The position numbers were made by a program, and so were the translations under genes. The notes beneath the pieces are model-generated. The model was not told where the DNA came from and searched no databases. It worked only from the letters and a program-made list of their open reading frames with translations. From positions 10,000 through 73,999 of IMG/VR virus record IMGVR_UViG_3300014836_000691: a DNA stretch of 64,000 nucleotides; one strand, written 5' to 3'. Shown here piece by piece: positions 2,800 through 63,721 of this stretch (the first letter of the stretch is position 1; each line of letters begins with the position of its first letter). This DNA comes from a virus.

Positions 2800-3208
2800 G
2801 CCTCAACATACCTAGGTATAAAATCAATACTCTGTGGGGCTTTTGGGGGTTCGTTCAAGACAACAAGGAAGGTAAGTTTTGCGAATACCGAGACTATGTT
2901 AGACTTCAGCGGGAGATGGATAAACAGCGTCTTGTGCTGGTTTCCCATCACGACTACGCAATCAGATTGGAAACTGAAAATCAGAAACTGAAAGAGGAAC
3001 TTAAGAAATACAAGGTATGAAAACCAAGCCAGCAAAGAAGCGGACTTGGCAAAGACCAGCCCACGGCGGGGGAAATATTGTGGCTGGACTGAAGAATCAA
3101 ACACCCTCTGAGTTCGCCACGACACAGCGATACTTTACGGACGCTAAAGCCAGATGGGAATGGCTGTTTGACCCTGTTCGCAACAAGTGGAAGCCTCCTG
3201 TTAAGTAA
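2796..3208 (+). CDS. two small hypothetical proteins (2796-3020, 3017-3208)
   Basis: ATGA overlaps chain them into the operon. Confidence 0.65.
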
Positions 3209-4128
3209 TGCCAAAGGGAGTAGACATAGTTGCCAGAACCAAGTCCTACGACAAGGGGCATTGTTGGCAGTATGACATTCGGGTTAAGAACCGAAATAGG
3301 GACTTGTTTGAGTCCGTTCTGACTGAGGGGGAGGTGTCGAAACTGAAGGTTTCCGATTTCATCTTTAAGCGTCTGACCTCAAAGGAGGAAAAGGAGGCGG
3401 CAACCGCCTTCATCCAACGCCACGAATGGTTGGGCAATTTGTCCCAATACACTACCCATTGGTTTGGTGCGTTCCTACACAATCCAAAGTCTGGTCTTTT
3501 CGGGGAGGATATTATGGCAGGGGTGATTTTGATGAATCTGCCAAACGCATTCTCCAAGTTGCTTGGCGAGGAAACCAGCGACCTTGAAAGACTCATTAGC
3601 CGTGGTGCTTGTGTTTCTTGGAGTCCGAAGAACTTGGCTAGTTCGTTCTTGATGTGGTGCGTCAATTGGATGGTCAAGAACACCCGCTACAGGCTCTTCA
3701 CCGCCTACTCCGACCCAACGGCAAAGGAACTTGGAACTATCTACCAAGCCTGTAATTTCTACTATCTTGGACAGGATGCGGGGACAATGAGTCGTTATGT
3801 GAATCCATACACAGGGAAGGTGGTTAGCGATAGGTTCTTCCGACAGCGTAGTGCCTACAAGAAGTTCGCCAAGGAACTTGGCATTTACTGGGAGAAAGAG
3901 TGGAGCGACAACAAGGGCGTTCTCTGGGCTAATATTCCGAAGGATGTTGAAACCGCCCTTCGCACCCATTCCAAGAAAAAGCAAGCCGAGTCCCAGCGTG
4001 TCTCAATGCCAAGTAAGCACAAATACGCTTTCGTGCTAGGCAAAAACAAGGCTGAAACAAAGCGTCTCAGAAAAGATTTCGAGCAACGCAACAAAGTGCT
4101 TCCCTTTCCCAAGGAGAGGGGTAAATGA
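3208..4128 (+). CDS. Mom-like GNAT DNA (adenine) modification enzyme
   Basis: Motifs FIQRHEWLG, KNLASSFL, AYSDP..ELGTIYQACNFYYLG and SKHKYAF, typical of Mom-like proteins. Confidence 0.7.
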   Translation: MPKGVDIVARTKSYDKGHCWQYDIRVKNRNRDLFESVLTEGEVSKLKVSDFIFKRLTSKEEKEAATAFIQRHEWLGNLSQYTTHWFGAFLHNPKSGLFGEDIMAGVILMNLPNAFSKLLGEETSDLERLISRGACVSWSPKNLASSFLMWCVNWMVKNTRYRLFTAYSDPTAKELGTIYQACNFYYLGQDAGTMSRYVNPYTGKVVSDRFFRQRSAYKKFAKELGIYWEKEWSDNKGVLWANIPKDVETALRTHSKKKQAESQRVSMPSKHKYAFVLGKNKAETKRLRKDFEQRNKVLPFPKERGK

Positions 4129-27153: not shown

Positions 27154-28254
27154 ATGGCTCGATACAAACAGTTTGTCGGAAAGAATGTCCTTGATGCCGC
27201 CAAGGAGCGACTGCACCACATACACGATATCTTCGATACGCCTGTGGTTTGCTTCTCTGGGGGCAAGGATAGCCAAGCCCTAATCCACCTTGCGTGGGAG
27301 GTAGCCCAAGAGCGAGGGCTGAAGTATGTTAATGCAATTTACTATCACGAAGAGTTTACGATGAATGAGATAGTCGGTGTGGTTAGGCATTATGCCGCTA
27401 TGCCGTGGGTGCGTATGCACCACTTGTGCATCCCTGTTCCCTCTACGGTGATGATTTTCAACAAGCAGATTCAATACACGATGTGGGATAAGAATCGTGA
27501 GACTATTCGACCTCTGCCCGATTACTCCATTCGTCCAGATGCGGCGAACTGGAATCGCAATTGGTATGCCGAAGAAATCGAAGAATACCAGACCCAGTTT
27601 TTCCGTGGCAAGGTAGCCCTAATGACAGGCATACGGTCACAGGAAAGCAGAATGCGTTGGCGAGCCAGCGTATGCAAACTGGTGGAGAACTACATCAACA
27701 AGTCGGCTCACAAGAAGAGCCAGATTTGCAAGCCCATCTACGACTGGCTAGAGAAGGATGTTCTGAAATACCTTTACGACAACAAGATTCCCTACGCCAA
27801 GGTCTACGACTCGCTTCTGTTCTGTAAGCGTAAGTTGAGAACTGGTGCGTTTATGAACCCGCAGACACAGGATGGGTTGCAGTTCCTTCGTAGAATTGAC
27901 CCTGTGTTCTACGACCAGATGCTTAAGATTTTCCCAGAGCAAATGCTTTCCGAGAAATACAGCAAGCACTTGGACAGGGATGCCTTGGTAGAGAAGTATG
28001 GGCATTCAATTGCTGGCATTGAGCAATACATCAAGGAGCATTACCAAGAAGGTCGCCCTCGCATTATCGCCCTCAACAGGCTCTACGAAATCTACAAGAT
28101 GAAGCAAGCCGACCAGCACAAGTCGGCAAATGTAATCTCAGAGGAGGGCAGTTTCCCCCTCTGGTATGTCCTTCGCTACTTCATCCGTGGCAACACAGCC
28201 CATCGCCTCCTGTCCTGTCCCAAGAACTTGGCAAAGTTCAAGGGGATGGTTTGA
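27154..28254 (+). CDS. PAPS reductase-family (IbrA/DndC-like) protein
   Basis: PP-loop VVCFSGGKDS, MTGIRSQESRMR, KPIYDWLEKDV. Confidence 0.9.
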   Translation: MARYKQFVGKNVLDAAKERLHHIHDIFDTPVVCFSGGKDSQALIHLAWEVAQERGLKYVNAIYYHEEFTMNEIVGVVRHYAAMPWVRMHHLCIPVPSTVMIFNKQIQYTMWDKNRETIRPLPDYSIRPDAANWNRNWYAEEIEEYQTQFFRGKVALMTGIRSQESRMRWRASVCKLVENYINKSAHKKSQICKPIYDWLEKDVLKYLYDNKIPYAKVYDSLLFCKRKLRTGAFMNPQTQDGLQFLRRIDPVFYDQMLKIFPEQMLSEKYSKHLDRDALVEKYGHSIAGIEQYIKEHYQEGRPRIIALNRLYEIYKMKQADQHKSANVISEEGSFPLWYVLRYFIRGNTAHRLLSCPKNLAKFKGMV

Positions 28255-28294
28255 GCGTTGACAAAACCTCAATTTTAAGGCTCTATTGCTAAAT

Positions 28295-28365
28295 AGACCT
28301 GTGGTGTAACGGTAGCACAAGTGATTTTGGTTCACTTTGTCTAGGTTCAAATCCTAGCAGGTCTA
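28295..28365 (+). tRNA. tRNA-Gln(TTG)
   Basis: AGACCTG/CAGGTCT acceptor stem, anticodon loop TTTTGGT. Confidence 0.9.
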
Positions 28366-28391
28366 TGGGGGTCTTTGACAGTCTGTCTTTT

Positions 28392-28463
28392 GCCTTGGTA
28401 GCACAATGGTTGTGCGTCTGTTTTGTAAACAGGTGGCTGTCGGTTCAACTCCGACCCAAGGCT
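28392..28463 (+). tRNA. tRNA-Thr(TGT)
   Basis: GCCTTGG/CCAAGGC, loop TTTGTAA. Confidence 0.9.
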
Positions 28464-28471
28464 CGTTTGTA

Positions 28472-28545
28472 GGGGGCTTCTTTCAATGGTAGGAAACCTC
28501 GTTTGCACCGAGGCAATGGGAGTTCGATTCTCCCCGCCTCCACCA
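28472..28545 (+). tRNA. tRNA-Ala(TGC)
   Basis: G3:U70 pair, loop TTTGCAC, encoded CCA. Confidence 0.9.
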
Positions 28546-28549
28546 ATTT

Positions 28550-28624
28550 GGGATTGTAGTTAAACGGTTATAACACACGGTTTTCATCCGTGTATTCGGA
28601 GTTCGATTCTCCGCAGTCCCGCCA
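28550..28624 (+). tRNA. tRNA-Glu(TTC)
   Basis: GGGATTG/CAGTCCC, loop TTTTCAT, encoded CCA. Confidence 0.9.
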
Positions 28625-28635
28625 GTTTTGACAGA

Positions 28636-28706
28636 TGGGAAGAAGTGTTACGGTAGCACAGAAGTCTCCAAATCTTCGGGCGTGGGTTCGACTCCCTCCT
28701 TCCCAG
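28636..28706 (+). tRNA. tRNA-Trp(CCA)
   Basis: TGGGAAG/CTTCCCA, loop CTCCAAA. Confidence 0.85.
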
Positions 28707-28713
28707 CATTTTT

Positions 28714-28786
28714 ACGATGGTAACTCAGTTGGTAGAGTGCTTGACTGTTACTCAAGTTGTCGGTGGTTCGACCCCACCCCATCGTG
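28714..28786 (+). tRNA. tRNA-Asn(GTT)
   Basis: ACGATGG/CCATCGT, loop CTGTTAC. Confidence 0.9.
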
Positions 28787-28793
28787 CCTTGCC

Positions 28794-28866
28794 CAGCCAG
28801 TATCTCAATTGGTAGAGTCCCTGCTTTGGGAGCAGGGTGTTGCAGGTTCAAGTCCTGTCTGGCTGA
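28794..28866 (+). tRNA. tRNA-Pro(TGG)
   Basis: CAGCCAG/CTGGCTG, loop TTTGGGA. Confidence 0.9.
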
Positions 28867-28871
28867 TTTAC

Positions 28872-28946
28872 GCACCTGTAGTTCAACGGATAGAACACCC
28901 GCCTTCTAAGCGGGTTATCTAGGTTCGATTCCTAGCAGGTGTGCCA
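28872..28946 (+). tRNA. tRNA-Arg(TCT)
   Basis: GCACCTG/CAGGTGT, loop CTTCTAA, encoded CCA. Confidence 0.9.
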
Positions 28947-28950
28947 CTTC

Positions 28951-29023
28951 GGGGGTGTAACTCAATGGTTAGAGTAGTCGCCTTTTAAGCGATTGGTTCT
29001 GGGTTCAAATCCCAGCACCCCCA
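28951..29023 (+). tRNA. tRNA-Lys(TTT)
   Basis: GGGGGTG/CACCCCC, loop CTTTTAA. Confidence 0.9.
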
Positions 29024-29028
29024 TTCCT

Positions 29029-29109
29029 GCGGATGTGGTGAAACGGTAAACACGACTGACTTAAAATCAGTTGCCCTACGGCTTGCGGGTTCAAGTCCCG
29101 CCTTCCGCA
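29029..29109 (+). tRNA. tRNA-Leu(TAA)
   Basis: Long variable arm, loop CTTAAAA. Confidence 0.9.
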
Positions 29110-29116
29110 CCCTTTC

Positions 29117-29189
29117 TGGCGTGTAGTTCAAAGGTTAGAACACTCTGCTCATAACGGAAGAAACGCTGGTTCAAATCCAGCCACGCCAA
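29117..29189 (+). tRNA. tRNA-Met or Ile2 (CAT)
   Basis: TGGCGTG/CACGCCA, loop CTCATAA. Confidence 0.85.
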
Positions 29190-29248
29190 CTTTCTAGTTG
29201 CATCGAAAAACTAAAACCAAACAGTTGTATGGGTAACGCACCGCAACT

Positions 29249-59573: not shown

Positions 59574-61070
59574 ATGGCGAGCCGAAGCGGTAGCAAGGCT
59601 ATGACAGCCAGTCTGATGGCTGATATCGCCGTTATGAACGCCCAGAAGGGCGTTATGGAGTTCCCTACTGCATCCCGAATCCCAAGGGTGACAATCGAAA
59701 CGGCTGAGGAGAGGCAGGAGTGGCCGGGCTTGCTTGATAGGATTTACAAGCAGTTAGACGGCCCTATGTTTGATTCGGACTTCCAAATCACGGATGAGGT
59801 TCGGGAAGACTTTAAAGAAATGTTTGGTTCTTTTAAGTTAGAATCCGAAGAATACAAAAAGAGCCTAAGAGACAACCCAGACCCAAGCATAAAGTCTTGG
59901 GACAGACCGCATAGGTGGGACGGCAAGACCTACGATTTTACAGGTCACCCTCAAGACAAGGCCACGGACGAGCAAATAAGAGAGTTTATTGGTTATTTGC
60001 GAGATGAGTTAGAGAAAGAGGCGAGTAATGTTCTCGATATTATTGCCAGAGAAGAAAAGGGAGAATCTTTGCCTGTATACTTGCTTGGAAGAGACAGGAG
60101 TTCGGCAGAAAGAAAAGAAGCGTTGGAGAAACTTCGCAACGAATCGGAAGTCAAGGAACTGATTTACCGTGGGCAGGATGCGTATGAGGTCTTAGATGCC
60201 AAGAAAGCGGCTGAGAAAATTAAAGCCGATAGGCGGGAAGACCGTTCGTCTGGCGGTGAACACTACAAGAGAGGTGTTGGATACACAGGCTCTGAGGGTG
60301 ACGGACTTTACCACCTCACGCCTCACGGCGGTTATGCCGCTGGCTACGCATCCAGTTCAGAGCAACCCACTACAGGTGTCATTGAGGGCGTTCTTGTTTC
60401 CAAGCGTCTGTTAGACCTTACTCCAATCACCGCTAGCAACCATATTGATTACAGCAGGGGTAATCGCAAGTTCTGGGATAGGTGGGAAAAGTATTACGGC
60501 AAGGGCAACGCCCCTAGCATTGACCATAGTTGGGAAAGAAGTGATGCGGCTCGACCTGCTTGGGATGATGTGACAGCGTTTGGTAAGCAGAAATACACAG
60601 GCAAAGCCTTTGGTGTATATTCGGAAAAAGAGCCTTGGTCTGGTGGTGGTGCTAACGGATACACAATGAGGGAAGCCTTTGGCATTAAAGACGCAGAGTC
60701 TCTGTCGAAGTGGAAGTGGTCTGAGAAAATCGCAAAAACTATCGGTGAGAACTACCAGCGTATTCACGGCAAACCAATGCCAGAGAATCTTGGAGTTCCC
60801 AAGGGTTCTGATTACACCTTGCAGGAGAGTATATACAACGATTTGCAGAAGCGTAGTGGTCTTACCTACCAACTTCTTAAGACCCCCACCTTTAAGCGGG
60901 TTATGAAAGAGGCTAAGTTTGATGCCGTTAAGTATTTGGACTATGGGGTTGGAAGAACGACTCCACTTGGAACTCCTGCTTACGGTGCGACCAAGCCTTC
61001 CCAGTTTAAGTCTTACTTTGGCGACAAGAAGGTGGATGAAAAGTCGCCTAATATGTTTGACGCTGACTGA
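59574..61070 (+). CDS. MATRS-leader protein 23, ART-like (polyvalent-protein type)
   Basis: MASRS...LMAD; IYRGQ, GDGLYHLTP..YAAGYA, LLDLT, FDAVKY, PSQFKS. Confidence 0.65.
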   Translation: MASRSGSKAMTASLMADIAVMNAQKGVMEFPTASRIPRVTIETAEERQEWPGLLDRIYKQLDGPMFDSDFQITDEVREDFKEMFGSFKLESEEYKKSLRDNPDPSIKSWDRPHRWDGKTYDFTGHPQDKATDEQIREFIGYLRDELEKEASNVLDIIAREEKGESLPVYLLGRDRSSAERKEALEKLRNESEVKELIYRGQDAYEVLDAKKAAEKIKADRREDRSSGGEHYKRGVGYTGSEGDGLYHLTPHGGYAAGYASSSEQPTTGVIEGVLVSKRLLDLTPITASNHIDYSRGNRKFWDRWEKYYGKGNAPSIDHSWERSDAARPAWDDVTAFGKQKYTGKAFGVYSEKEPWSGGGANGYTMREAFGIKDAESLSKWKWSEKIAKTIGENYQRIHGKPMPENLGVPKGSDYTLQESIYNDLQKRSGLTYQLLKTPTFKRVMKEAKFDAVKYLDYGVGRTTPLGTPAYGATKPSQFKSYFGDKKVDEKSPNMFDAD

Positions 61071-61112
61071 TTTTGAGGTTGAAACACACCCTGTTCTGGG
61101 TAGAACCTTTTA

Positions 61113-61544
61113 ATGAACTTAGGCGAGAGTAGTGTAAGTGCTAGCACACCGCTTTTCCAAAGCGGAAGTGGCGGTTCAACTCCGACCCTCTCGCACCAAT
61201 TGATTGAAAAGATAAAGCGTTGCCTAAGCCCAGATTTGCTTAAGAAACAATACAGGGCAAAGAATGCGGACAATCCCACCTACGGTCATTGTTATATTGC
61301 AACGGAAGCCCTGTTTTACTCGCTGAACGATAGTAGGTATGCCCCCGCTAGGGGCAGGGACGATTCTGGCGTGGTGCATTGGTGGATTGTAGATAGGGCG
61401 ACAGGTGAAATCCTAGACCCGACAGCAGAACAATACACAAGCCAAGGGCTGACTCCTCCCTACGCACAGGGACGGTGTGGTGGCTTTCTGACCAAGACAC
61501 CTTCTCAGCGGTGCAAGACCTTGCTTGCTAGAATGCGAGAATGA
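61113..61544 (+). CDS. Cys-His-Asp (papain/transglutaminase-like) small protein; true start uncertain
   Basis: GHCYIATEAL, VHWW, ILDPTAEQY; the first about 29 codons overlap the tRNA. Confidence 0.6.
   Translation: MNLGESSVSASTPLFQSGSGGSTPTLSHQLIEKIKRCLSPDLLKKQYRAKNADNPTYGHCYIATEALFYSLNDSRYAPARGRDDSGVVHWWIVDRATGEILDPTAEQYTSQGLTPPYAQGRCGGFLTKTPSQRCKTLLARMRE
61123..61198 (+). tRNA. atypical tRNA-Gly(TCC)
   Basis: GCGAGAG/CTCTCGC acceptor, loop TTTCCAA, encoded CCA; no D-loop GG; bulged A in the T-stem. Confidence 0.75.
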
Positions 61545-62182
61545 GCAAGGAAAAAGAAAATAAAGGATTGGCGATACAGTCCTTCCTCACCTTGGCTGAC
61601 CAGCCGACAGGATACTTTGTCAGAGAGGTTTCCTTGGACGAAACCAAGCAGTTTATCCTCAAGATACATTACGCCAGACGAATGCCTGTGGTTAGCCACG
61701 CATTTGGCTTATTGCACAACGGCGAATTGGTAGGCATAGTAACCTACGGCATCCCCGCCAGCAGTCATTTGTGCAGGGGTGTGTGCGGAGACGACAAAAA
61801 GGGCATCGTAATCGAACTGAACAGGCTATGCTTGCTCCACAACAGGAAAAACGAAGCCTCTATGCTCGTTTCCAGAAGTATGCAGATGCTTCCCAAGCCC
61901 AAAGTGGTCGTTTCCTACGCCGACACCGAGCAGGGTCATTTGGGCATCGTCTATCAAGCCTGTAACTTTCTCTTTACTGGAAGCACAAGAGAACGGACGG
62001 ACATAGCGTCAGCGGACGGCAAGCATAGCCGTCACCACCTTGGCGACTTGACCAAGCGACAGAAGCGTAGTTCCAAGCACAGATACATTTACTTCGTGGG
62101 CAACAAGAATGAGGTAAGGGAATTGAAGGGGCTTTTAAGATATAAAGTTCAACCATTCCCGACACGAAAACAGGCTGGTTGA
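61541..62182 (+). CDS. mom: Mom-like GNAT adenine-modification enzyme
   Basis: FILKIHY, VGIVTYG, IELNRL, NEASMLVSRS, VVSYADTEQGHLGIVYQACNFLFTG, SKHRYIY. Confidence 0.8.
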   Translation: MSKEKENKGLAIQSFLTLADQPTGYFVREVSLDETKQFILKIHYARRMPVVSHAFGLLHNGELVGIVTYGIPASSHLCRGVCGDDKKGIVIELNRLCLLHNRKNEASMLVSRSMQMLPKPKVVVSYADTEQGHLGIVYQACNFLFTGSTRERTDIASADGKHSRHHLGDLTKRQKRSSKHRYIYFVGNKNEVRELKGLLRYKVQPFPTRKQAG

Positions 62183-62204
62183 CTAGCGTCAAAGGTTGCT
62201 AGGT

Positions 62205-62642
62205 ATGGCGACACGAAGCGACAGACAACGGCTTGCTAGAGCCGATTTTAACTATTCTGGACTATCAGTCCGTTCTACTACCTCATTCCAACAGGAATTG
62301 AACAGAGAACAACAGGGCAATCGAGATAAGTTCAGATTCCCTTCCTTTTCTGCCGTCCCTTCGGCTACGCCGAATCTGGATGTTGGTGGTTTCCTTCGGA
62401 GCAATCCAGAGGGGTCGCTAGGCGACATTGTGGCAAGCGGTGATACCTTTATATCGTCTAAGGATAGGGCTACCTATGTCGTAGAGGATGTAGGGAACAG
62501 GAAACTTACGGCAAGGCGTGTGTCCGCTAATGAGAGCGAGGGGGCGACTGTCGGCTATGTCGTAGAGCGAGATGCCAACGGTCAGCCTGTAGGACTTAGG
62601 GAGAAGGGCGTAAGACCGCCCAACAGAGCCGTATTCGGTTAA
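62205..62642 (+). CDS. MATRS-leader protein 24
   Basis: MATRSDRQRLARAD, after TTGAC-N6-CAAA at 62179. Confidence 0.8.
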   Translation: MATRSDRQRLARADFNYSGLSVRSTTSFQQELNREQQGNRDKFRFPSFSAVPSATPNLDVGGFLRSNPEGSLGDIVASGDTFISSKDRATYVVEDVGNRKLTARRVSANESEGATVGYVVERDANGQPVGLREKGVRPPNRAVFG

Positions 62643-63721
62643 GAGCCTAGCGGACGGTGCATCTTGGGGGTCTGCTCTTCCATCGTCCTGTCTGGGTCAA
62701 TCAGCCAGTTCGTGTGGTTCTTGCACACCAAGCACAGCGTCTTGCCACGCCAGAGTTTTGCCTTGTAGGGCGTTTGAAAGGTCGTAACTCCCTCCCATTT
62801 AGTTGCGTAGCACTTCGGACAAGCAAACCTAGGAAAGACTGGCTGAACGCTAATCTTCTCCTCTGGCGAGTATTCCCCCGCCGAGTATCCTTCGTTGTTT
62901 GAATCCACGACTCTTAGACAAACCGTCTTGCCTGTAGTCGCAAGTCGAAATGCTCTCCTGTTATGCGAACCACAATCTTCCCTAGTTCGCAAGAGGGGGT
63001 TACTTCGCAATCTACGCCAGCGTCACGCATTCGTTCTTTGAACAGACGCACGGATTCTTCCGTGTGCGATTTAGCATCGCCCGACAGGGACTCATCCAGC
63101 ATAAGTTGCGAACCTGCTATATCTTCCGACAGGTTGGCTACCGCATTGGCAACCGAACCGTAGACACCCTCTACGAGCGTCCACCGATACTGGTGGTTCA
63201 CGATTAGGAGTCGTGAGGCTTGATACGCATAAGGCAATACTTGGTCTTGTATTTCTTAGACCAGAGAACCCTAGGGTAGCCCATCTCAGCGAGATGTTCG
63301 TTCGTAAACTTCTGCCAAGAGTCGGGCAAGGGCATCTTGCCCTCACGGAGCATAGCCAAGAAGGTGTCTTCCTTGACCTTGGGAGCGTCCTTGGTCGTAA
63401 GGTCTACCACCAGAGGCTCGACCTTCTTGACCTGCGTCCTGTTCGGATTGGAATTGAACTTAAAGATGCTCATTTGGATTCCAGCCCAAGATTGAACGCT
63501 CTGAGGATTCGGACAGCCTCGACCTTATCCCTAGGGTAGAGCATAACCACCCTGTCGGTCTTGAAGAAGAGGGTCAACTTGAAGCCGTTAGGCTCTCCCT
63601 CAAACATAACATCAATCCCACGCTTGGAGATTTCCTTGGACAGTTCCTTGCGGAGCGTGGTCAGTTCCTTGTCGCCAAGGTGCGTGTCTAACTCAAGCCC
63701 ATTCCATTTTTGTTCGTTCAT
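62639..63721 (-). CDS. four small hypothetical proteins (Zn-finger ending 62639; 62914-63237; 63204-63473; 63470-63721)
   Basis: Minus-strand ORFs; CPKC...CLVC. Confidence 0.55.

Follow-up and report, generated by a model that had tools for sequence, protein, structure and literature searches.

We analyzed a stretch of 64,000 nucleotides (nt) from an uncultured freshwater phage (bases 10000-73999 of the IMG/VR virus record IMGVR_UViG_3300014836_000691), which is called the window throughout the paper. The window carries a real tRNA-Gly(UCC) ahead of a gene of the Mom family of DNA-modifying enzymes. This tRNA-Gly belongs to a family of Mom-linked tRNAGly-like RNAs, and such a slightly deformed tRNA-Gly accompanies the Mom genes of well over a hundred further phages. 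The linkage between RNA and Mom is strong but confined to some Mom clades. Judged from the sequences, the RNA of the window is probably a phage-encoded, largely non-translational tRNA-Gly, which would serve Mom as a dedicated glycyl carrier. A tRNA mimic with regulatory function is the main rival to this explanation.

A non-canonical tRNA-Gly ahead of a Mom gene

Using ARAGORN, 12 tRNAs were found in the window. Eleven of them form an array at 28294-29190. The remaining one, located 31.9 kb beyond the array end (29190), is a tRNA-Gly with the anticodon tcc on the + strand (Table 1). A previous sequence-only reading of this DNA had described it as the only Gly tRNA of the window, about 32 kb from the array and about 340 nt upstream of a mom-like gene, and all of this was borne out. 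The distance to the mom ATG at 61541 is 342 nt, and the encoded Mom scored 126.4 bits on Pfam PF25680 (cut-off 27.1). Between both lies a gene for a Cys-His-Asp protein, termed mid here. The three genes form an operon-like string, in which the stop codon of mid overlaps the ATG of mom (ATGA). No tRNA beyond these 12 was found in the whole record of 73,999 nt, for which CheckV gave a completeness of 72.

The tRNA-Gly scored 52 bits on Rfam RF00005 (E 8.6e-10, gathering score 29), and its cloverleaf folds with -28.3 kcal/mol (z -3.18). The acceptor stem carries the pairs G1-C72, C2-G71 and G3-C70, and C35, C36 and A37 are present. In the D-loop (AAGUGCUA) G18 is followed by C19, hence the GG is absent. 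The T-arm reads GGCGG-UUCAACU-CCG[A]CC, and its stem contains a single additional A on the 3' side. The tRNA has A73 as discriminator and an encoded CCA. U33, the UUC of the T-loop (U54-U55-C56) and a full D-arm are retained. The Gly-type acceptor pairs, the lacking D-loop GG, the T-stem A, A73 and the CCA had all been read correctly before. Searching GenBank phages by blastn, just three chance matches of 23 nt were obtained for the tRNA-Gly, and no near relative for the region.

Mom genes and tRNAGly-like RNAs are linked in some Mom clades

Scanning viral contigs with the exact T-arm of the window (extra nucleotide plus first acceptor bases) yielded 90 loci. Of these, 86 had T or G at the extra position; they were ordinary tRNAs or other sequence, and no Mom was found there by tblastn. 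An A at this position occurred in 4 loci only (L077, its duplicate L113, L079 and L117). All of them are cloverleaves with Gly anticodons (ACC, UCC, GCC), and each abuts a Pfam Mom gene (153-178 bits). From the alignment of the Mom proteins beside these 4 elements a second Mom clade was defined, with 344 confirmed relatives among at least 598 pattern matches. The best 80 of these 344 relatives provided the loci of the forward survey.

In these 80 second-clade loci ARAGORN detected a tRNA in 9, of which 8 were Gly, all at most 15 nt from the end of mom. Rfam at gathering thresholds detected zero elements in 20 of the second-clade loci. As both overlook most family members, two covariance models, R1 and R2, were built for the surveys. 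R1 was based on 11 sequences, with the window as one of the 11 training rows. It matched in 76 of the 80 loci (77 hits), and hits and Mom match ends were a median of 4 nt apart. All but one of the hits were located downstream of Mom, 70 on its strand and 6 on the opposite one; the remaining hit was upstream. Beyond these 76 loci, a weaker copy of the element was recognized by eye in L201, while R1 and inspection revealed no element in L233, L236 and L243.

A looser T-arm pattern gave at least 120 stretches, of which 118 represented new loci. Among the matches listed, a Mom homologue was found within 300 nt in 98 of the 118 sites, always with the element on the strand of mom (69 downstream, 29 upstream). 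The remaining 20 comprised 6 family-like elements, 3 copies of an ordinary tRNA and 11 sequences which are not tRNA. Four of the 6 family-like exceptions lie at locus edges, L277 has its Mom 1.3 kb off, and L262 is without Mom. For the Moms most similar to that of the window, the element was found upstream in 17 of 18, again among the matches listed.

Further arrangements were seen in these loci. Tandem duplicate elements occur downstream of mom in L171 (3792-3929), L278 (4375-4519), L328 (335-472) and L248 (3162-3302). Two Mom-family genes in tandem are present in L290 (1009-3785) and L243 (about 2870-3730). In L290 the RNA is located in the 5' end of the first Mom gene, and a gene similar to DNA methyltransferases follows.

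The RNA family keeps glycine identity features and loses decoding features

The cloverleaf structure of the Mom-linked RNA is under selection. In the R1 alignment 98.7% of the cells were paired, both-side changes were found in 15 of 21 pairs, and none of 500 shuffles matched this. R2 was derived from 74 Mom-adjacent hits with the window excluded, and its underlying alignment was made with R1. On R2 the tRNA-Gly of the window reached 71.6 bits (E 1.3e-14), versus at most 47.9 bits for the array tRNAs of the window and every ordinary tRNA in 852 kb. The highest score of an ordinary tRNA was 52.3 bits for a phage tRNA-Gly(GCC).

Conservation was counted over 73 distinct family sequences. G1-C72 and C2-G71 were each found in 73/73 and G3-C70 in 67/73 (G-U in 4). 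The anticodon is NCC in 72/73 (UCC 40, ACC 26, CCC 5, GCC 1). A37 is present in 63/73, the extra T-stem A, which sits beside two invariant G-C pairs, in 71/73, U73 in 72/73 and an encoded CCA in 46/73. Just 24 of the 73 members have U33 (G in 25, A in 17, C in 7), and the T-loop is UUC in just 16 and UGC in 30 of them. The D-arm is reduced in many members, whose length is 67-70 nt. The identity set of the bacterial glycyl-tRNA synthetase (GlyRS) reportedly consists of G1-C72, C2-G71, C35, C36 and U73, as stated in the tRNA identity reviews of Giege and colleagues, and U33 is near-universal among decoding tRNAs. Retention of the GlyRS identity set together with the loss of decoding features is the pattern expected of an RNA which needs to be glycylated, not to decode. 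In 4 of the 73 members, including L077 (3956-4030) and L197 (1885-1960), G3-U70 replaces G3-C70. A G3-U70 pair is the main alanine identity element, and these members might, going by that pair, be charged with alanine. The affinity for EF-Tu is described as set by three T-stem pairs (PMC3239215). The extra A of the family falls among the T-stem pairs that EF-Tu reads.

Relatives of the window and cultured phages

L448, a metagenome contig of 1,359 nt, shows the order ATG, 10 nt, tRNA, mid, mom as in the window. Its tRNA is 91.8% identical to that of the window over positions 1-73, while the flanks are 70.5% (mid), 73.9% (mom) and 63.4% (40 nt upstream) identical. The six differences between both tRNAs include one compensatory anticodon-stem pair (G-C to A-U) and the change of U33 to G. 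A73 is kept and the CCA is not encoded. The L448 element comes directly after a tRNA-Ser and a tRNA-Ile; the label "stand-alone", which had been given to the tRNA-Gly of the window, is therefore no trait of the lineage. In L319 the element is found upstream, with A73 and CCA like in the window. The window Mom is 86% identical to the L448 Mom and 56% to the L319 Mom. The mom gene of L448 has an in-frame TAG at 1263-1265, about 23 codons before the stop of the window gene, either as real truncation or as assembly error. The order tRNA-mid-mom and the fusion of the leader to mid are specific to the window and its relatives L448 and L415/L416.

The element was also found in two cultured phages. 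Salinibacter phage B2_17 (OR896349.1) has, in this order, a ParB_N gene, a Mom gene, an annotated tRNA-Gly and a helix-turn-helix (HTH) protein. Its Mom, annotated as hypothetical, scored 91.8 bits on Pfam Mom, and its tRNA-Gly, which has G33, scored 87.3 bits on R2. In Psychrobacter phage vB_PmaS_Y8A (OQ059336.1) two elements with reduced D-arm occur in tandem (R2 55.0 and 54.4 bits). They lie in the unannotated 165 nt which separate its Mom gene (188.2 bits) from the small terminase gene. Aeromonas phage pAEv1818, with a Mu-like Mom, has no element. A ParB_N/sulfiredoxin-domain gene lies just upstream of Mom in L449 (OR896349.1 18633-20274), L248 (OQ059336.1 6521-8327) and L117 (11788-13450). 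With ParB_N genes before Mom and terminase genes after the RNA, the module opens the series of packaging genes in phages that are unrelated to each other.

Upstream elements are read in frame

We analyzed 24 upstream cases, window and L215 included. The element lies in frame within the following open reading frame (ORF) in 22 of them, and a start codon was found 7-52 nt before the element in 20 (7-19 nt in 19 of these). Gene callers will thus usually absorb the RNA into Mom. In L319, L329, L268, L298 and L294 the next in-frame start is found 149-269 nt further on, within conserved Mom sequence.

These findings are relevant for the idea that the RNA is a tRNA mimic which controls Mom, be it as RNase P/RNase Z site at which the mom message is destroyed or matured, as a feedback operator for Mom or GlyRS similar to the thrS leader, or as a decoy restraining a toxic enzyme. 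Besides the in-frame position, the near start codons and the five cases without another close start, the downstream elements, which abut or overlap the mom stop, agree with such control. Moreover, Mu mom is under unusual translational control by Com, and Com is annotated as "translational regulator of Mom". Nevertheless, we regard control as an unlikely, if serious, explanation. Six of the 77 elements of the forward survey are on the strand opposite to mom and cannot belong to the mom message. Tandem duplicates exist (L171, L278, L328, Psychrobacter phage), and the window element precedes mid rather than mom. An operator would not need the joint conservation of C35, C36, A37, U73 and an encoded CCA. 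The thrS operator and the 3' tRNA-like structures of plant viruses are tRNA-shaped elements inside or at the end of messenger RNA. They imitate a tRNA partially or are located at a genome 3' end, whereas the Mom-linked family has a full cloverleaf with anticodon and CCA and may reside on the opposite strand.

The in-frame position also allows for selection of the encoded peptide (..PLFQ..GGS(I/T)PTSxLQ) as N-terminal tag on Mom or mid, with an incidental cloverleaf. The frame is open with a preceding start in 20 of the 24 upstream cases, and the motif recurs. However, the larger downstream group has the element past the stop codon or on the opposite strand, and the stem halves co-vary as base pairs, which a peptide does not need. 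This includes the anticodon-stem pair that is G-C in the window and A-U in L448. We consider a peptide tag very improbable.

Comparison with known systems

In Mu, Mom transfers the glycine of Gly-tRNAGly to the N6 position of adenine (Silva et al., Nat Commun 2026, PMC13219725), and so the donor which the sequence-only reading had named for Mom is correct for the Mu enzyme. It is reported to accept all three E. coli tRNAGly isoacceptors, while Gly-tRNAAla was inactive (PMC13219725). Phage-encoded or adjacent tRNAs are not mentioned in the main text of that article. Mu Mom and the window Mom share the enzyme family (PF25680) and the equivalents of R111 and S124. However, Mu has no tRNA gene of its own and its Mom accepts each of the three isoacceptors of the host, while the phage of the window brings its own deformed tRNA-Gly.

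Dedicated glycine carriers have been described for staphylococci. The non-proteinogenic tRNAGly species are devoid of G18/G19 and U55/C56, and their binding to EF-Tu is weak (PMC4574755, PMC7826273), in line with what had been stated earlier about their D-loop GG and EF-Tu binding. According to these articles NP1, NP2 and NEW carry UCC, are charged by the ordinary GlyRS and deliver glycine to Fem peptidyl-transferases. They differ from the Mom-linked RNAs in being cellular, in serving peptidoglycan as acceptor and in having no extra T-stem nucleotide. Compared to them the window copy has lost G19 but retained G18 and U55/C56.

The closest precedent for the arrangement comes from 16 Dehalococcoides ssrA islands, for which a conserved tRNA-Gly-like locus of 76 bp was reported within the initial 150 bp of the gene for a Mom homologue (McMurdie et al., BMC Genomics 2011, PMC3146451). 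It neighbours a ParB-domain gene, and in the sections relating to this locus a function for the RNA was not proposed (PMC3146451). This pseudo-tRNA resembles our upstream in-frame arrangement. It differs by its location in bacterial islands with a Mom taken as methylation-type, while the window RNA is fused before mid and has A73. The Dehalococcoides element lies within the integration module of these genomic islands (PMC3146451), which would agree with a remnant of an integration site, be it a copied host tRNA-Gly gene serving as attP or a scar left behind by a mobile mom cassette. Such an origin is extremely improbable. The elements form cloverleaves of full length, have four different Gly anticodons and show compensatory changes in all stems, no integrase adjoins the element in the window, and the Dehalococcoides islands are described as integrating at ssrA, not at tRNA-Gly (PMC3146451).

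No paper linking a phage tRNA to Mom as donor was found in the open-access and bioRxiv literature. For a single bacterial lineage the co-location was published in 2011, and for Mu the donor chemistry in 2026; we found no paper joining both.

A proposed private glycyl carrier for Mom

For the RNA as glycyl carrier we propose the following sequence of events. The RNA would be transcribed with the mid-mom operon and excised by tRNA-processing enzymes of the host. It would then be charged by host GlyRS, which is proposed because the positions which this enzyme reads in acceptor stem and anticodon are exactly those kept by the family. The extra A in the EF-Tu-read T-stem, together with the relaxed elbow and anticodon loop, would keep the RNA out of translation. 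Finally Mom, a GNAT enzyme, would use the RNA as private donor and pass its glycine on to adenine N6 of double-stranded DNA. Of all this, the sequences show the RNA family with its conserved cloverleaf, its nearly exclusive position beside Mom genes and the membership of the window, and the use of Gly-tRNAGly is published for Mu Mom only. That the RNA is glycylated, escapes EF-Tu and serves the window Mom is inferred.

We are aware of the fact that several observations weigh against this proposal. Charging of the window copy is its weakest link, as the tetrameric GlyRS of bacteria has U73 among its determinants and the window has A73. This nucleotide was found only in the window, L448, L319, L289 and L268, which thereby depart from the U73 rule of the family. 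Furthermore, the RNA is absent from all 73 viral-contig loci whose Mom homologues are closest to the window Mom (identity 51-65%, and 32% for a single one). These loci have no ARAGORN tRNA within up to 5 kb, no R1 match and no neighbouring gene in common with the window. The co-occurrence of mom homologues with such RNAs, which the sequence-only reading had suggested to look for, thus holds for the 76 of 80 second-clade loci and the 98 of 118 listed sites but not for these closest homologues. That reading had also made itself dependent on linkage with mom in related phages, and linkage was found, in the Mom-adjacent RNAs and in L448 with its preserved gene order. The Mom of Mu clearly functions with no private tRNA, and the same presumably holds for the 73 tRNA-less relatives. 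The upstream in-frame arrangement agrees no less well with a cis-regulatory or dual-coding role than with a carrier. A scan for sigma-70-like promoters in 60800-62800 gave 0.

Other points concern decoding. The window copy is the least degenerate family member. As it keeps U33, the UUC T-loop and the full D-arm, it may have a role in translation. Its codons would be GGA and GGG, to which 33% of the Gly codons in 13 large ORFs belong. It may accordingly be asked whether it is an ordinary phage tRNA-Gly which aids GGA/GGG decoding and lies near mom by chance or due to shared late expression. Standard tools call it, the phage has 11 other tRNAs, none of them Gly, and the L448 copy has two ordinary tRNAs directly before it. 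However, the extra A of the family and the R2 score, 71.6 bits compared to 52.3 bits for the top ordinary tRNA, set the window copy apart. RNAs of its type are nearly always Mom-adjacent, its closest relative L448 has G33, and the majority of the family is without U33 and the elbow nucleotides. We consider an ordinary tRNA improbable. For the reasons given with each, chance adjacency, a peptide tag and an attachment-site remnant were rejected.

Going beyond the glycyl carrier of the window, the Mom-linked RNAs might be widespread viral non-translational aminoacyl carriers for DNA chemistry. In the upstream type the same nucleotides would then serve as the first approximately 25 codons of Mom or mid and as carrier, and the split between translation and cutting would set the ratio of enzyme to donor. 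In the lineage of the window, mid would be a further enzyme acting on glycyl-RNA or on glycyl/carbamoylmethyl adenine, and the resulting modification would be unlike that of Mu. This extended picture is speculative and, taken as a whole, rather doubtful.

Aminoacyl-tRNAs are known donors in cell-wall, lipid, protein and antibiotic chemistry. Since 2026 an aminoacyl-tRNA is also described as donor in DNA hypermodification, for Mu Mom (PMC13219725). If our proposal is true, the RNA would be the first viral private carrier, a tRNA linked to a DNA-modifying enzyme and retained for charging rather than decoding. Many "pseudo-tRNA" calls would then be accounted for, and so would the unusual extensions at the N- or C-terminus of annotated Mom genes. 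The RNA would also offer a sequence handle for such systems (extra T-stem A, NCC, GCG...CGC-U-CCA) and a natural experiment on the tRNA features read by GlyRS, EF-Tu and Mom. A phage with its own donor would be less dependent on host tRNAs, which would have a bearing on anti-restriction and host range. As the module is present in two cultured phage-host pairs, those of Salinibacter phage B2_17 and Psychrobacter phage vB_PmaS_Y8A, the idea is testable now.

The Mom and mid proteins

The window Mom is 29% identical to Mu Mom, and the product expected of the Mom family is N6-carbamoylmethyl-adenine in DNA. In an alignment of 9 sequences, Mu Mom and window included, the equivalents of Mu R111 and S124 are invariant. 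Both residues are reported as essential in Mu Mom, and deletion of its HTH-like insertion (residues about 175-209) as abolishing Mom activity (PMC13219725). Opposite this insertion the window Mom has a long gap, making the region much shorter as judged by the alignment only.

Table 1. Position of the tRNA-Gly and the two following genes in the window.
Feature	Position	Strand	Source
Non-canonical tRNA-Gly(UCC), Mom-linked tRNAGly-like RNA family	61123..61198	+	ARAGORN, Rfam, window-free covariance model R2
143-amino-acid ORF, tRNA-derived leader plus mid	61113..61544	+	ORF list, phrog_12251
Mom-family GNAT DNA-modification enzyme, 213 amino acids	61541..62182	+	Pfam PF25680

The ORF starting at 61113 has its ATG 10 nt ahead of the tRNA and, as noted earlier from the sequence, reads through the tRNA in frame, giving ...STPLFQSGSGGSTPTLSHQ... 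in the ORF list; the tRNA-encoded leader contains ..PLFQSGSGGSTPTLSHQ. The remainder is the mid protein of 114 amino acids, with TTG at 61200 as possible start of its own. Its residues from 61200 on match phrog_12251 (function unknown, 3e-30). The Pfam family YunG (PF24585) matched the 143-amino-acid ORF with 13.7 bits, under the cut-off of 27, and did not match the form of 114 amino acids at E 0.01; one mid homologue, P0017, has a precomputed PF24585 match. In total 46 homologues of mid were found, and Cys31, His60 and Asp73 are invariant in 16 sequences. The tRNA-derived leader is present in 5 of 22 fetched homologues, which are the five closest long ones (P0001, P0002, P0003, P0006, P0007). 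An AlphaFold model of mid had a predicted local distance difference test score (pLDDT) of 94.4. Foldseek of this model versus the PDB gave nothing at E 0.001 or better. The top rows obtained with VIA-align had weak Z values (SseI and LapG 5.0, arylamine N-acetyltransferase 4.5, protein-glutaminase 4.4). With Z at most 5.0 these matches of the model are mostly to Cys-His-Asp enzymes of the transglutaminase/papain-like kind.

By tblastn a mid homologue is absent from the 73, 90 and 118 loci of three surveys, counts which exclude the 80 loci L168-L247. It recurs with the RNA or with Mom only in L448, L415/L416, L380 and L382. Conversely, tblastn of 80 viral loci with mid homologues gave 4 weak-to-good Mom matches. 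In L380 and L382 Mom is located directly downstream of mid; the L382 Mom scored 120.9 bits on Pfam, and no RNA element was found in the 297 nt available upstream in L382. In L415 and L416 the family element is fused in frame before mid, followed by an ORF of 98 amino acids and a DruA-like GNAT. Single-sequence pattern searches of viral contigs for mid and for the 498-amino-acid protein encoded upstream gave no confirmed relative. The earlier suggestion of a third component next to RNA and Mom has thin support, with co-occurrence in a few lineages and absence from the three surveys. From its distribution in the sequences mid reads as a recurrent but optional companion of Mom and the RNA.

The GNAT-like protein of L416 (4978-5682) scored 30.7 bits on Pfam DruA (Druantia), and its G-T-I-Y-K-A motif resembles that of Mom. 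Ordinary tRNA genes were found within 4 kb of the mid homologue in 10 of the 80 loci (L383, L386, L393, L396, L400, L422, L423, L428, L430, L444), mostly in large-phage arrays. This may reflect a tRNA-related role of mid or a mere effect of genome size. Elsewhere in the window, a gene for a protein similar to 3'-phosphoadenosine-5'-phosphosulfate (PAPS) reductase (27154-28254; phrog_2302, 267 bits) ends about 40 nt before the array of 11 tRNAs. The genes flanking tRNA, mid and mom (59574-61070 and 62196-62642) start with MASRS... and, from the ATG at 62205, with MATRS..., respectively.

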